Assembly (NCBI GenBank): GCA_036514555.1
Contig: DATBWY010000078.1
Coordinates: forward strand, 1 to 24,599
From: Candidatus Subteraquimicrobiales bacterium
GTDB lineage: Bacteria > Actinomycetota > Aquicultoria > Subteraquimicrobiales > DATBWY01
Reading direction: 5' to 3'
DNA: 24,599 nt
This document shows, one piece after another, positions 1,589-21,790 of this stretch; within the stretch, counting starts at the first letter, position 1; every line of letters starts with the position of its first letter. A program made the position numbers and the translations under genes. The notes under the pieces were generated by a model. The model was not told where the DNA came from. It worked only from the letters and a program-made list of their open reading frames with translations, and ran no database searches.

Positions 1589-1617
1589 TTTACTTGTGTC
1601 ATGTTTTAAATTATAAT
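1589..1617 (+). promoter_or_regulatory. Sigma70-type promoter for the thi operon
   Basis: TTTACT (1589-1594), 17-nt spacer, TATAAT (1612-1617), about 35 nt upstream of the riboswitch aptamer. Confidence 0.65.
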
Positions 1618-1850: not shown

Positions 1851-2657
1851 ATGGCAATATTTCATCCGGTTGCGGAAAAAGACGTTACTCAGGCGATTGT
1901 TGAGAGTTTTTTAACCCAGTTTAAGCAGTATGCCGAGAGCGATGTGATTATTATCGGCGGCGGGCCGAGTGGTCTTATAGCCGGGAAAGAGCTTGCCCAA
2001 AAGAATTACAAGGTTTTGCTGGTGGAAAGAAATAATTATCTTGGAGGTGGTTTCTGGCTTGGCGGGTATTTGATGAACAAAGTAACGGTTAGAGCGCCGG
2101 CTCAAGAAGTACTGGAGGCTCTCAAGATTCCCTATGAACAGGCGGTTGAGGGTTTGTTTGTTGCCGACGGACCGCATGCTTGCTCTAAACTTATCGCTTC
2201 AGCCTGTGACGCCGGGGTTAAATTTGCCAATATGACCATCTTTGAGGACGTAATTTTGAGAGAAGAGAATAAAGTTGCGGGTGTCGTCATCAACTGGACT
2301 CCCATCTCCTCCTTGCCTAGGGAGATAACCTGCGTAGATCCAATTGGTTTAGAGGCAAAAATTGTCATTGACGCTACCGGACACGACGCCTGTGTTGTTA
2401 AGAAATTGGAAGAAAGGGGCCTAATCAAGACCCCTGGTTTCGGGGGAATGTGGGTAGAAAAATCCGAAGACTTAGTAGTGGAGCACACTGGCGAGGTTGC
2501 GCCCGGTCTGATGGTCTGCGGTATGGCTACTTCGACCACTTACGGTCTGCCCCGGATGGGACCAACTTTTGGGGCCATGCTTCTTTCCGGAAAAAGGGCG
2601 GCGGAAATCGCCGACAAAATTTTGGAAAAGGAAGAAGAGAAAGTTTTAAAAGAATAA
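1851..2657 (+). CDS. thi4: Thi4-family adenosine diphosphate thiazole synthase, Cys-type
   Basis: GGGPSG Rossmann motif, GGG-x-W-x-[22 protein letters not shown], and TCVDP with Cys at 2331-2333. Start moved to ATG 1851 behind AAGGAGG (1838-1844); the track start 1791 lies in the terminator tail. Confidence 0.95.
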
Positions 2658-2669
2658 ATCTAAAGAAAC

Positions 2670-3503
2670 ATGAAAAAAAGTCAAATCACTGTCTATCTTT
2701 ATGATGAGCCGAAATCAACCAGATTGGATACGAAGAGTATAAAAAATTACCTTGAGGAAAAAACCAGCCTTAAGGTTCGGTTGCGACCGGCCATCTTTGA
2801 CTTTTTTGTGAGTTCACGGAAGCCGGGAGAGAGAGAACTAGAAAAATGGGCTCAAAAATTAGCTCAAACCAAGATTAGAGACGTTTCCCGCGTGTCATCG
2901 CTCGCTCCCTTAAAAGGAGAAATAGAGTACGAAATAAGAAGACTTTTGGACCATTCAATCAAATCTTTTGGGCTTTTATACGACGGATTTCCACTCGTTT
3001 CTCTATTTTTTAATTTATTGCCGGAAGAAGAGCAAAACGGGCGTTTCATTCACATAATCTTTACAAACCAGCTTATTGGCACCTGGGACAAAGTAAGCGC
3101 CCGTTATCACGCACGAGTCGCTGTCTTAAGTTTTCCCTCAATCATTTCAACCACGGGTGTTGTGGAGGCGCCGGCTAAGCCCAAAGAGTATTACTGGTTG
3201 AAACAACAGGTTTTATCGCTGGGGTTCGATCCCGAAACCTTGGAGGATTTTAAAAAAGCCCGGAACAATGAGTTGCTTGAACACGAAGACCAGCGGCTCA
3301 CAGAGGTTTTGAAAGGTTATGCGCTTCAGGCAATCCTTCATCACTTTGAAGACGAACCATTTTGTAAAGATCAAAATTGCCGATTGTTCAATGCTCACTG
3401 GCAAAAAGAAGTGATAAGAGCTCAGCTCGAGGGAGAATATGAACTTTGCCCAGAACACGAGAAATTTTTTCAAGACCTCAAGGAGTTAAGGTGGCAAGGA
3501 TAA
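2670..3503 (+). CDS. Uncharacterised protein, DUF6775/DUF7001-like degenerate archaemetzincin-type Zn protein
   Basis: 277-aa ORF 12 nt after thi4, overlapping the thiE start. Motifs GTW...RYHARV, GVVEAPAKPKEYY, LKGYALQA, C-x4-C-x3-NAH...C-x2-H. Family name is from recall and is not verified. Confidence 0.75.
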   Translation: MKKSQITVYLYDEPKSTRLDTKSIKNYLEEKTSLKVRLRPAIFDFFVSSRKPGERELEKWAQKLAQTKIRDVSRVSSLAPLKGEIEYEIRRLLDHSIKSFGLLYDGFPLVSLFFNLLPEEEQNGRFIHIIFTNQLIGTWDKVSARYHARVAVLSFPSIISTTGVVEAPAKPKEYYWLKQQVLSLGFDPETLEDFKKARNNELLEHEDQRLTEVLKGYALQAILHHFEDEPFCKDQNCRLFNAHWQKEVIRAQLEGEYELCPEHEKFFQDLKELRWQG

Positions 3504-4171
3504 ATTTGGGGGTACGGCCGGAATCCAAAAGGCTGGATCGCGGAATCGATTTAAGTCTTTATGCAATTACTGCTGAATTTCCTCCGCTGGCAAGAAGTCA
3601 TCTGAAGGTAGCCGAAGCCGCGATTGACGGCGGAGCCAGTGTCATCCAGCTGCGCGAAAAAACGGCCCCGACCAGAGAATTTTTGGAAGAAGCTTTAAAA
3701 ATTCGAGCAGCGACCAAAAAAGCTAAAATACCGCTTATCATTAACGATCGTCTAGACATAGCCTTAGCTGTTGATGCCGACGGGGTTCATCTCGGTCAAG
3801 AAGATTTGCCCGTCGCGATGGCCAGGAGAATTTTGGGGCCAAAAAAAATTATTGGCGTCTCTCTGGGAAGAGCCGAGGAGGCAAAGACGGCAGTCTCCGA
3901 GGGAGCTGACTACGTTGCCTTGGGGCCTATTTTTGAAACGGCCAGTAAGAGTGATGCCAGAAAGCCCGTTGGCTGTGAGGCTGTGAGAAAAATTAGAGCC
4001 GCCCTAAAAATTCCTGTAGTCGCAATTGGCGGAATAAATGGGGATAATGTGAGGGAAGTTTTGGAGGCGGGGGCCGATGGGGTCGCCGTTATTTCCGCTA
4101 TCTCCGAGGCCCAAAACATGAAAGAGGCTACTCAGTCTCTTCTCGATAAAATCAGGTTATACAGGCGATGA
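3491..4171 (+). CDS. thiE: Thiamine-phosphate synthase
   Basis: IQLREK, LIINDRLD, DGVHLGQED, GVS, YVALGPIFET-x-SK, VAIGGI, GVAVISAI. GTG at 3491 follows AGGAG (3481-3485). Confidence 0.95.
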   Translation: MARINLGVRPESKRLDRGIDLSLYAITAEFPPLARSHLKVAEAAIDGGASVIQLREKTAPTREFLEEALKIRAATKKAKIPLIINDRLDIALAVDADGVHLGQEDLPVAMARRILGPKKIIGVSLGRAEEAKTAVSEGADYVALGPIFETASKSDARKPVGCEAVRKIRAALKIPVVAIGGINGDNVREVLEAGADGVAVISAISEAQNMKEATQSLLDKIRLYRR

Positions 4172-4214
4172 GGTTGAAGGGAAAAGTTTGAGTAATGAGA
4201 TGGGAGCAAGAAAA

Positions 4215-5516
4215 ATGACTTTAATCCAAAGGATAAAAGCGGGCGAAGTTCCTGAAATAGTAACAAAAGTAGCCTCTTTTGAAAGAGTGAACCTAAAGAC
4301 CCTTCTTGAACATATCGTTCAGGGCAAAGTGGTCATTCCTCAAAACATCGGAAGAACTCTAGCGTCGCCCGCGGGAATTGGTAAGGGCCTGCGCACCAAG
4401 ATTAACGCTAACCTCGGGACTTCCGCCGATTTTCCGTATCTCCAAGAAGAGTTAAAGAAACTGGAAATTGCTATAAGAGCCGGCGCAGACACTGTCATGG
4501 ACTTAAGCACCGGCGGCGATTTAGATAAGATTCGGCGGGACATTTTGAAAAGGTCTACCGTGCCGGTGGGAACGGTTCCTATTTATCAGGCCGCGGTGGA
4601 AGCGCAGCAAAAAAAGGGCGGCATTGTGGAGATGACCCCAGAGGATCTTTTTAGAGTGATTGAAAAGCAGGCGGAAGACGGGGTAGATTTTGTGACAGTT
4701 CACTGTGGCGTGACAACTAAGGTTTTGGATGATTTGAGCAGAACCGGGCGGATTACCAGCATTGTGAGTCGGGGAGGAACTTTCCTCGCGGGCTGGATTC
4801 GCCACAACGAACAGGAGAATCCTCTATACGAAGGGTTTGATCGGCTGCTTGATCTGGCGAGAAGATATGATCTCACTCTAAGCTTAGGGGATGGGTTACG
4901 TCCCGGGTGCCTGGCTGACGCCACCGACAAAGCCCAAATAAGTGAGCTTTCGGTCCTGGCCGAACTGGTCGACAGGGCTCGAGACGCGGACGTTCAGGTA
5001 ATTGTGGAAGGGCCGGGTCATGTACCTCTTAATCAAATCGAAGCCAACGTAAAACTACAAAAAGAACTGTGCAAAGAAGCTCCTTTTTATGTATTGGGAC
5101 CCTTAGTAACGGATGTCGCTCCGGGATATGATCATATCGTGGCGGCTATCGGTGGCACTTTAGCGGCCTTTTATGGGGCCGATTTCCTATGTTATGTTAC
5201 TCCTCGGGAACACCTGGGTCTTCCGACCGTTCAGGACGTGAAAGAAGGGACTGTCGCCTCCAGAATTGCGGCTCACGCTGCTGATATTGCAAAAGGAGTC
5301 CCTGGGGCCTCCGACTGGGACTTGAAGATGGCCCGGGCCCGGGCCGATTTAAACTGGAAGGACCAGATTGAGTTGGCAATGGATTCTCAAAAAGCCCAAG
5401 AAGCGCATGAGGAAAGAAAAGGCCCCCACAATGACGCCTGTACCATGTGCGGCGATTATTGTGCCTTGAAATTAGCTAGTGAGTATCTTAAGTCTAGCTC
5501 GACTGGGAAGTGTTGA
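4215..5516 (+). CDS. thiC: Phosphomethylpyrimidine synthase (radical SAM)
   Basis: KINANLGTS, GADTVMDLSTG, TVHCG, SRGG, SLGDGLRPG, EGPGH, APGYDH, C-terminal CTMCGDYC cluster motif, thi operon context. Start ATG 4215 (GGGAG SD) preferred over TTG 4188. Confidence 0.95.
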   Translation: MTLIQRIKAGEVPEIVTKVASFERVNLKTLLEHIVQGKVVIPQNIGRTLASPAGIGKGLRTKINANLGTSADFPYLQEELKKLEIAIRAGADTVMDLSTGGDLDKIRRDILKRSTVPVGTVPIYQAAVEAQQKKGGIVEMTPEDLFRVIEKQAEDGVDFVTVHCGVTTKVLDDLSRTGRITSIVSRGGTFLAGWIRHNEQENPLYEGFDRLLDLARRYDLTLSLGDGLRPGCLADATDKAQISELSVLAELVDRARDADVQVIVEGPGHVPLNQIEANVKLQKELCKEAPFYVLGPLVTDVAPGYDHIVAAIGGTLAAFYGADFLCYVTPREHLGLPTVQDVKEGTVASRIAAHAADIAKGVPGASDWDLKMARARADLNWKDQIELAMDSQKAQEAHEERKGPHNDACTMCGDYCALKLASEYLKSSSTGKC

Positions 5517-5522
5517 TAAAAG

Positions 5523-6530
5523 ATGACCCTTGAGGAAATCGGGGAAATAAAGCTTATCGAGGAAATTTCAAAGATCATTCAAAAGGAAGATAAGCGGGTA
5601 CTGGTTCCTGTGGGTGACGATGCCGCCGTTTGTGTTTCCCCTCGCCACAACACCGTTTTAACCACCGATATCCTCGTAGAAGAGGTCCACTTTAAGCTGG
5701 ATTCAATCTTGCCGTACCAGTTGGGTTACAAGGCTTTGGCCGTAAATTTAAGTGATATAGCCGCTATGGCGGGCTTGCCTCGATTTGCCCTGGTATCTTT
5801 GGGTTTAAAGCCAAAAACTGAATTAAAATGGATTCAAGAATTTTACCGGGGAATGATGGCTCTCGGGGCGAATTACGACGTGACTGTGGTTGGGGGAGAC
5901 GTGTCGAGAGCGGCTCTTGTTTCGGTTACCGCGACTATTGTGGGCGAGGTTGAGCCCGAACTCCTGCGCCGAAGAAACGAGGCTAAAGTAGGACACAGGA
6001 TTTTGGTTACCGGCAAGCTTGGGGCGGCCGCCGCTGGTCTTCTGCTTCTTGATTCAGGCATAGAAAATCCTGATAGCGAGCTGATTCAAGCGCACTTTTT
6101 TCCCAATCCCAGAATAACTGAGGCCAGAATAGCATCACAAGAGGGCGCCTCGGCTATGGAAGACATCAGCGATGGTTTAGCCCGGGAAATTTCGAACATC
6201 GCCAGAGCGAGCAAAGTTGGCGCCAGAATTTTTACCCAAAAGATTCCCGTTGCCCCTGGTGTTAAAAAGGTAGCTAAAGATCAAAACAAGCACTTTTTGG
6301 AATTAGCTTTAGCGGGAGGAGAGGACTATGAGTTAGTTTTTACGGTAGCTCCTCAAAAAGTGGGGCAGGTAGCTTCCTCGATCGTGAAGAAGACCAAGAC
6401 TTTAGTAACCGAAGTCGGGGAAATTGTACCTAAAGAATCTGGGGTACTTCTTGGTAACGACGATTTTCGAGACTTCCCTTTGGACAAATTAGGGTATAAT
6501 CACTTTAAAATGAATAATTTTTTAAGATAA
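5523..6530 (+). CDS. thiL: Thiamine-monophosphate kinase
   Basis: GE-x2-LI, GDDAAV, TTD-x-LVEEVHF, NLSDIAAMAG, GGD, DISDGL, GGEDYELVFT. Confidence 0.95.
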   Translation: MTLEEIGEIKLIEEISKIIQKEDKRVLVPVGDDAAVCVSPRHNTVLTTDILVEEVHFKLDSILPYQLGYKALAVNLSDIAAMAGLPRFALVSLGLKPKTELKWIQEFYRGMMALGANYDVTVVGGDVSRAALVSVTATIVGEVEPELLRRRNEAKVGHRILVTGKLGAAAAGLLLLDSGIENPDSELIQAHFFPNPRITEARIASQEGASAMEDISDGLAREISNIARASKVGARIFTQKIPVAPGVKKVAKDQNKHFLELALAGGEDYELVFTVAPQKVGQVASSIVKKTKTLVTEVGEIVPKESGVLLGNDDFRDFPLDKLGYNHFKMNNFLR

Positions 6531-20998: not shown

Positions 20999-21790
20999 AT
21001 GACTAAAGAATCAACCGGTGTCGTCACTGCATTAACAATTGGTGGTTCGGATCCAAGCGCGGGCGCTGGTGTTCAGGTGGACGCTCTCACCTTGGCCCAA
21101 CTTAAAGTGTTTCCTTTCTCGGTAATTACCGCGGTGACCGCTCAAAACAGCTTAGGTGTTACTGTTACCTTTCCTTTACCTCCAAGACTAGTTTTGGACC
21201 AGCTAGAAGCGATTTTTAGAGATTTTGGGGTAAGTGTTGTTAAAACGGGTATGCTGGGAAGCAAAGCCAACGCCATGGCCGTTTCCAGGTTTTTAAAAGA
21301 ACAAAAGATGCCATTGGTAGTGGACCCCGTCTTAAAGGCTTCAGACGGCACCCCCCTTTTTGAGGACTCCGATCTTTCCGTTTTTAAAGAAGAATTATTT
21401 CCCTTAGCTATTTTGGTTACTCCCAATATTGAGGAGGTTCGAAGGCTTACGGGGATTTCTGTCCGTGACACTAGTGACATAGATGATGCGGCCAAGACTA
21501 TGTATGGCCTCGGGGCCAAGTGGGTTCTGATAAAAGGAGGACACCTAAAAGGGGAGGATAGTTCAGATTTTCTCTATGACGGGAAGGAATTGAGGAGATT
21601 TCCGGGTGAGAAAATAGGAACCGAGATGCGTGGAACAGGATGCATTTTTGCCTCGGCAATCGCTGCTCATTTAGCGCAAGGAAAGAATGTCCCCGAAGCG
21701 ACGAAACTCGCCAAAGAGCTTGTGACCGGAAAGATAAAATCGGCTTTTTCGCTAGGGGAAGGAAGGCCCCAGGCGCTTCCGTGGACCTAA
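20999..21790 (+). CDS. thiD: Hydroxymethylpyrimidine/phosphomethylpyrimidine kinase
   Basis: TIGGSDPSAGAGVQVD, TAVTAQN, VKTGML, VVDPV, VTPNIEE, LIKGGH, GTGC. Start ATG 20999 preferred to the track start 20900. Confidence 0.92.
   Translation: MTKESTGVVTALTIGGSDPSAGAGVQVDALTLAQLKVFPFSVITAVTAQNSLGVTVTFPLPPRLVLDQLEAIFRDFGVSVVKTGMLGSKANAMAVSRFLKEQKMPLVVDPVLKASDGTPLFEDSDLSVFKEELFPLAILVTPNIEEVRRLTGISVRDTSDIDDAAKTMYGLGAKWVLIKGGHLKGEDSSDFLYDGKELRRFPGEKIGTEMRGTGCIFASAIAAHLAQGKNVPEATKLAKELVTGKIKSAFSLGEGRPQALPWT

Follow-up and report, generated by a model that had tools for sequence, protein, structure and literature searches.

Introduction

Thi4 enzymes need a mononuclear metal, and those of the Cys type destroy themselves with each thiazole made and count among the costliest enzymes on record. 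By what means prokaryotes bear the expense of a Cys-type Thi4 is a question relevant to crop engineering, as the turnover of plant THI4 is costly.

A full-text search found only one work on DUF6775, by Oliveira-Filho, Van Gelder, Obe, Voiniciuc, Wilson and Hanson (bioRxiv 10.1101/2025.09.23.678117; ACS Omega 2026, PMC13325395). According to this work, no other gene clusters with suicide Thi4 as often as DUF6775 does: the clustering was seen in about two-thirds of over 400 genomes (PMC13325395). The published AlphaFold model is similar to 3LMC and 2X7M, carries a site made of three Cys and one His, and misses HExxH (10.1101/2025.09.23.678117; PMC13325395). The recombinant protein was insoluble, and ICP-MS performed on inclusion bodies detected no metal (PMC13325395). 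A metallochaperone role was suggested by these authors (PMC13325395), and the non-suicide (His-type) Thi4 clusters with metal-binding TRASH proteins (as cited in PMC13325395).

Here we analyse a stretch of 24,599 nucleotides from a Candidatus Subteraquimicrobiales bacterium (contig DATBWY010000078.1, assembly GCA_036514555.1), hereafter called the window, in which a DUF6775 gene lies within a thiamine operon. A preliminary description, made from the sequence alone, had presented this gene as an undescribed component of the thiamine pathway. The pairing of DUF6775 with suicide Thi4, its fold and the loss of HExxH were, however, published in 2025-26, and the window gene is an ordinary member of the published family and no new kind of object.

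Results

The DUF6775 gene is expressed from a TPP-riboswitch operon shared with thi4. The features of the operon, and one related gene outside it, are as follows:

1589..1617, + strand: promoter-like site TTTACT-17-TATAAT upstream of the riboswitch, supported by a 10/12 match to the consensus alone, shuffled sequence giving no fewer sites than the region
1648-1756, + strand: TPP riboswitch aptamer (RF00059, 74.2 bits for a gathering score of 54.3, E 3.5e-13, full model 1-105)
1851..2657, + strand: thi4, Cys-type ('suicide') thiazole synthase (PF01946, E 6e-70; TIGR00292, 250 bits)
2670..3503, + strand: DUF6775/DUF7001 protein gene (P0001), 277 aa, ATG start, TAA stop at 3501-3503
3491..4171, + strand: thiE, thiamine-phosphate synthase, GTG start (Pfam/NCBIfam)
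4188..5516, + strand: thiC, HMP-P synthase (PF01964, E 3.5e-192)
5523..6530, + strand: thiL, thiamine-monophosphate kinase (AIRS and AIRS_C)
21050..21763 (match coordinates), + strand: thiD-like HMP(-P) kinase (PF08543, E 6.6e-78), outside the riboswitch operon

The identities of the flanking Thi4, ThiE, ThiC and ThiL agree with both Pfam and NCBIfam. The thi4 stop codon (TAA, 2655-2657) leaves a 12-nt spacer before the DUF6775 ORF, and the thiE GTG at 3491, which has an AAGGAG Shine-Dalgarno sequence 5 nt upstream, overlaps the end of the DUF6775 gene by 13 nt; both distances, noted in the preliminary description, were confirmed on the sequence. Translation is almost certainly coupled along thi4, the DUF6775 gene and thiE. 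Other starts exist, at a TTG at 1791 for thi4 and possibly at an earlier TTG at 3446 for thiE, ThiE homology starting only near residue 34 of this longer ORF. No convincing terminator was found inside thi4-DUF6775-thiE-thiC-thiL, and no sulfur-relay genes were found near it. The window is a clean minimal test case, with one riboswitch operon and no other sulfur genes. The thiD-like kinase gene lies about 14.5 kb downstream of the operon end (thiL ends at 6530), which places HMP-P kinase outside the control of this riboswitch.

The encoded protein matches the DUF6775 family HMM (PF20565) over its full length and above the gathering score (positions 3-258 of 259, E 9.9e-84, 281.3 bits, cut-off 27), as well as DUF7001 (PF22529, positions 2-246 of 247, E 3.2e-77, 259.8 bits), and the family named in the preliminary description was thus the correct one; no NCBIfam model matches the protein. 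DUF6775 is a large family: clustering at 90% identity leaves more than 3,000 groups. In an alignment of 31 of its sequences (32-63% identity), about 29 positions are invariant, mostly polar. Among them are the motif residues H147 and R149 (RYHAR), P168 and A169 (EAPAKP), Y175, C232, C237, N241, H243, C260 and H263, together with F231 and L239, and further invariants (29 in all) include Y11, R39, E88, Y104, H128, T132, S160, D207, Y217, Q220, W244, Q245, E247 and Q252. The RYH, EAPAKP, NAH, C-x4-C and C-x2-H motifs first picked out by eye are accordingly real and conserved. Three Cys and one His are invariant and there is no HExxH; no cysteine other than these three, which belong to the metal site, is conserved. 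At position 228 the window protein has Asp, where 90% or more of family members have Gly. Judged from this conservation, the roughly 29 invariant residues would point to a precise pocket or interface.

An AlphaFold2 model of the protein, built from 31 homologues, reached a pLDDT of 91.1 and a pTM of 0.89 and shows the alpha/beta/alpha fold of metzincins. The likeness to archaemetzincins was detected solely by fold comparison: solved structures searched by sequence, with the protein and with the profile, gave no match, and the neighbours found in AlphaFold DB clusters and the ESM Atlas are uncharacterised or M54-like only. When a reference set of 12 archaemetzincin sequences from Thermoproteota genomes was used in a profile-profile comparison, 47 C-terminal columns were aligned, weakly (E 0.07). 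The register relative to HExxHxxGxxHC-x4-C-x-M...C-x2-C is anchored by C232, equivalent to the Cys of HExxHxxGxxHC, and involves two segments:

3297..3347, + strand: helix 210-226, counterpart of the metzincin HExxH helix, reading A221-I222-L-H-H225, with the invariants Y217 and Q220
3363..3458, + strand: Cys3His metal-site motif C232-x4-C237...C260-x2-H263, all invariant, aligned with C-x4-C...C-x2-C of the 12 archaemetzincins

In this register, the first His of HExxH is A221, the Glu is I222 and the second His is H225, unconserved in the family; the third zinc His position is the invariant Phe F231, and the metzincin Gly position is D228. The Met of the Met-turn is replaced by the invariant L239 (C-V-M in the 12 archaemetzincins against C237-R-L239), and their C-x2-C corresponds to C260-x2-H263. 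These substitutions indicate the loss of both the catalytic zinc site and the Met-turn, with the second metal site kept as Cys3His. The HExxHxxGxxH/D catalytic motif is absent from the window protein, and neither Peptidase_M54 (PF07998) nor any other peptidase family in Pfam matched it at E <= 1. The DUF6775 protein is an archaemetzincin-type fold without the catalytic zinc site and the Met-turn Met, and the initial view of a degenerate archaemetzincin-like protein devoid of HExxH stands on both fold comparison and motif alignment. No Nudix family or fold match was obtained either (Pfam, NCBIfam, fold comparison).

The distribution of DUF6775 was established in 462 genomes, 401 of the window's phylum and 61 Thermoproteota. 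The gene was present in 18 of them, all with a Cys-type Thi4, and in none of the approximately 51 genomes with only a His-type Thi4 nor of the approximately 384 without Thi4; the lineages bearing it are few and related, and these counts overstate independence. Within the window's phylum, it occurs in 9/401 genomes, all nine with a Thi4 at least 65% identical to that of the window, and at every readable locus this Thi4 is of the Cys type and lies directly upstream wherever the contig allows. Twenty-three genomes of the phylum have only a Thi4 of about 40-45% identity; DUF6775 was found in none of these, and HVDP was read in every Thi4 fetched from them. Among the Thermoproteota, the gene is present in 9/61 genomes, in each case directly downstream of a Thi4 reading LPRNITCVDP, and absent from all 28 genomes with a more distant Thi4, which is His-type in the 21 of 21 that were read. 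None of the 40 nearest relatives of the window's genome has DUF6775 (16 of them have Thi4). Cys-type Thi4 without DUF6775 was found in nine sampled genomes of the phylum, or 11 with two less complete relatives, and no DUF6775 homologue was found in Haloferax volcanii, the control genome of the searches. Phylogenetic profiling against the Thi4 types, a check put forward in the preliminary description, therefore shows co-occurrence and linkage with the Cys type only, bar one Ser variant described below. No gene is more faithfully linked to Cys-type Thi4 than DUF6775, which is present throughout the marine ammonia-oxidising archaea.

Several particular genomes were encountered in this survey. Five genomes of one family (G163, G211, G246, G400 and G410) have two thiazole synthases each: a His-type thi4 belongs to a thiE/thiC/thiL operon, and a Cys-type thi4 accompanied by DUF6775 lies apart from it. 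In one Thermoproteota genome (G472:C1:1420430-1421181), the DUF6775 frame beside thi4 is broken by TAG and TAA, and could be a pseudogene or reflect a sequencing error. All nine DUF6775-bearing Thermoproteota are without a true archaemetzincin (PF07998), which 41 of the 61 sampled genomes have; this absence is probably a lineage effect.

Starting from DUF6775 itself, we collected 57 metagenomic loci with at least 850 nt of upstream DNA. The thi4 gene was directly upstream on the same strand in 54/57 and within 2.7 kb in 56/57, and every such Thi4 was of the Cys type except one with Ser; the window gene likewise adjoins the gene of a Cys-type Thi4. The next gene after DUF6775 elsewhere encodes ThiS, ThiF, MnmA, HcyBio, a BioB-like protein or ThiN, and sulfur-related genes are found after DUF6775 in the published clusters as well (PMC13325395). 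The constant unit across loci is thi4 followed by DUF6775. In the exceptional locus (L154:1908-3466), the Thi4 of the pair reads PREIASLDP, that is, Ser in place of the sacrificial Cys; both residues flanking this Ser are changed, and the protein is otherwise well conserved, sharing many residues with the window's Thi4 from end to end. A Thi4 of the Ser type cannot act as its own sulfur donor.

In a quick IQ-TREE phylogeny of 63 Thi4 rows, Cys and His types separate with full support. The 22 DUF6775-linked Thi4s and one unlinked (G044) form one group in the Cys clade (SH-aLRT 91), with two label changes for DUF6775 linkage over the 63 rows. Within the Cys clade, the window's Thi4 is placed next to DUF6775-linked Thi4s of other phyla. 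It groups with that of a Thermoleophilia MAG and those of another family of its phylum, and apart from the Cys-type Thi4s found in its own class. Only five Thi4 columns (60, 128, 150, 158 and 215) separate 80 DUF6775-linked proteins from the 8 unlinked Cys-type proteins of the window's class, a comparison that involves few independent lineages and gives a lead only. Two of these columns, T150 and E158, lie in the segment that runs up to the active-site Cys161 (in ITCVDP, numbered from the ATG at 1851), and the residue three before this Cys is E, Q or N in 80/80 linked proteins and Ala in 8/8 unlinked ones. The G044 gene (L088:1432-2400) is a stand-alone Cys-type thi4 reading LPRQITCVDP that has all five discriminating residues. 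DUF6775 was not found in this genome, which is 95% complete, and ThiM is present there; a recent loss of DUF6775 is likely.

The operon of the window is a mosaic. Relatives of the same order have thi4(His)-thiE-thiC-thiL and no DUF6775. The window's ThiE, ThiC and ThiL are 55-56, 64-67 and 50-60% identical to the proteins of these relatives, versus 46-49, 50-55 and 45% to those of foreign thi4-DUF6775 operons, whereas its Thi4 is 73-80% identical to the Thi4s of the foreign DUF6775 operons and 42% to those of the same order. These opposite patterns indicate that a foreign cassette of thi4(Cys) and DUF6775 replaced the His-type thi4 in an otherwise native operon. No flank synteny with the same-order relatives was found beyond the operon core. 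The DUF6775 gene and the Cys-type thi4 of a single clade form a two-gene cassette that is inherited and transferred as a unit, and nature has performed a swap experiment here: of operons that are otherwise related, some contain His-type thi4 alone and the window's contains Cys-type thi4 together with DUF6775.

The slot between thi4 and thiE can hold another gene. In three same-class Cys-type operons without DUF6775, it is occupied by thiM (hydroxyethylthiazole kinase):

L024:4229-5050: thiM in the DUF6775 slot, same-class relative
L025:4901-5725: thiM in the DUF6775 slot, same-class relative
L026:3579-4385: thiM in the DUF6775 slot, same-class relative

Within the window's phylum, ThiM is present in 0/9 genomes with DUF6775 versus 10/11 Cys-type genomes without it, a suggestive complementarity that involves three or four lineages per side. 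It is broken by the Thermoleophilia genome of locus L006, which has both, and the Thermoproteota are uninformative on this point, a true ThiM occurring in one sampled genome only. Neither ThiM nor a true ThiG was found in the window's own genome (82% complete), and ThiS- and ThiF-family genes are on other contigs. Three Nudix genes lie elsewhere in this genome and 5-6 in each of the DUF6775-bearing archaea, which rules out the idea that DUF6775 genomes are devoid of Nudix genes.

Finally, a co-fold of Thi4 and DUF6775 was computed. The two genes are in the same frame, and the two TAA codons of the spacer were read as Gly to give a Thi4-linker-DUF6775 chain. The input consisted of 11 paired rows (the window and 10 other in-frame pairs) and 33 Thi4 rows, MAFFT block alignments that placed the N-terminal 100 residues of DUF6775 on Thi4 having been excluded as mis-aligned, and the AlphaFold2 monomer model was used. 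Both halves were well folded (pLDDT 89) with no confident mutual arrangement (pTM 0.54), a weak result given 11 paired rows only, a monomer model and the fact that Thi4 is an oligomer.

Discussion

A factor that serves the enzyme itself best accounts for three observations: the strict tie to Cys-type Thi4, inheritance in the manner of a cassette, and the repeated occurrence of sulfur-relay genes next door. We infer that DUF6775 is an accessory of Cys-type Thi4 and does not perform a general step of the thiamine pathway. Since Cys-type Thi4s work without DUF6775 in yeast, in H. volcanii and in 9-11 of the sampled genomes, it is an accessory and not a requirement.

What this accessory does can be proposed only tentatively. 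The reading that we favour, without holding it to be probable, is that of a reactivation or sulfur-supply factor for Cys-type Thi4, and it is suggested by a specificity that follows the Cys/His split, by the conservation of a protease-type cleft and by the E, Q or N found three residues before the Cys. The protease-derived cleft of DUF6775 would engage Thi4, possibly at the loop carrying the sacrificial Cys. By one route, DUF6775 may help return sulfur to the dehydroalanine left after turnover; by another, it may bring an external sulfur donor to the Thi4 active site. With either route, the 'suicide' Thi4 would turn over more than once. The preliminary description had also mentioned a handling of spent or re-sulfurated suicide Thi4, which fits the strict Cys-type specificity. 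A more specific form, in which DUF6775 derives from a protease and acts as an enzyme on Thi4, restoring its sulfur by binding the dehydroalanine loop and catalysing sulfide or persulfide addition, or by feeding an external donor, has in our opinion only a small chance of being right. Three points speak against the simplest form of repair. From the alignment, no obvious persulfide-carrying Cys is available, as the conserved Cys all belong to the metal site. The locus with a Ser-variant Thi4 is not explained by plain dehydroalanine repair. The predicted co-fold, which is weak evidence, showed no confident interface. Besides, many of the invariant residues are Arg, His, Lys, Ser, Thr or Tyr, a set that would also fit a pocket for a small molecule (nucleotide). 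If reactivation or sulfur supply were the function, the 'suicide' Thi4 of many bacteria and of the ammonia-oxidising archaea would be a catalytic, repairable enzyme; in any case, the function of DUF6775 would show whether 'suicide' Thi4s are truly single-use.

The other readings rank below this one. The best of them, although we consider it unlikely, is the proposal of Oliveira-Filho et al. that DUF6775 is a metallochaperone or metal reservoir, which would take up Fe(II) or some other metal, either through the Cys3His site or through a new one, and load it into Thi4; iron delivery to Thi4 would be the nearest alternative of the same kind to reactivation or sulfur supply. The invariant H128, H147, H243, E166 and D207 could form a putative metal site. 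Moreover, a mononuclear metal is what Thi4 needs, chaperone genes often adjoin those of their clients, a client-specific linkage is compatible with such a role, and the TRASH proteins found with non-suicide Thi4 provide a parallel partner. However, the published preparation contained no metal (although it came from inclusion bodies), in archaemetzincins the counterpart of the Cys3His site is structural, and the co-fold provided no confident interface here either. Metal delivery alone also leaves the Cys/His split and the frequent sulfur-relay neighbours unexplained.

A still less likely reading, put forward in the preliminary description, is that of a new ADP-thiazole (ADT) hydrolase or release factor turning ADT into thiazole phosphate and AMP, perhaps directly from the spent, product-holding Thi4. 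It accounts for the position of the gene between thi4 and thiE or thiN, and invariant Arg, Lys, His, Ser and Thr suit a nucleotide pocket. Such a hydrolase should co-occur with every Thi4, and the data show the opposite, which disfavours it: the same ADT is made in the approximately 51 His-type genomes, which have no DUF6775 and in most cases no ThiM either, and several Cys-type genomes and H. volcanii do without DUF6775 too. The natural swap leads to the same conclusion, as thiE-thiC-thiL of the same-order relatives work downstream of a His-type Thi4 without DUF6775. In addition, Nudix genes are present in the own genome and in the archaea, and the DUF6775 protein has no signature of a Nudix or other hydrolase (Pfam, NCBIfam). 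A product-release role limited to suicide enzymes might find support in the near-complementarity with ThiM, which occupies the same slot in same-class Cys-type operons (0/9 against 10/11), but this pattern involves few lineages and fails in the Thermoleophilia genome.

Least probable of all is a disposal factor, whether an adaptor or a peptidase whose active site has moved, which would recognise and remove inactivated (dehydroalanine) Thi4: the Cys-type specificity fits, databases use the label 'putative metallopeptidase' and the modelled protease fold appears to preserve its cleft-forming strand and helix, but the canonical catalytic residues are all lost (HExxH to A-I-x-x-H/variable, third His to Phe, Met to Leu), no peptidase family matches, and general proteases could do the job.

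DUF6775 can be placed among known systems as follows. Archaemetzincins are not known to be linked to thi4, unlike DUF6775. Compared with these proteins (Peptidase_M54; AmzA, PDB 2X7M, 3ZVS and 3LMC), DUF6775 is without their HExxHxxGxxH/D, their Met-turn Met and an M54 match, and it is longer by about 100 residues, which form helical inserts, and differs in which residues are invariant. The second metal site is made of four Cys in archaemetzincins and, putatively, of three Cys and His263 in DUF6775; 3LMC itself has three Cys and one His (PMC13325395). The Nudix hydrolases, presumed to be the ADT hydrolases, share only a proposed role with DUF6775 and have no sequence or fold similarity to it. 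The TRASH-domain proteins are, like DUF6775, small putative metal-binding partners encoded beside a Thi4 gene, but they have an unrelated fold and accompany the other Thi4 type. Finally, the window protein has the same fold, Cys3His motif, HExxH loss and place directly after a Cys-type thi4 as the published DUF6775 proteins, and nothing essential differs; its particularities are the riboswitch-controlled thi4-DUF6775-thiE-thiC-thiL operon and Asp228. To the published picture, the present analysis adds the co-occurrence count in 462 genomes, the metagenomic neighbourhood of 57 loci and the mosaic operon.
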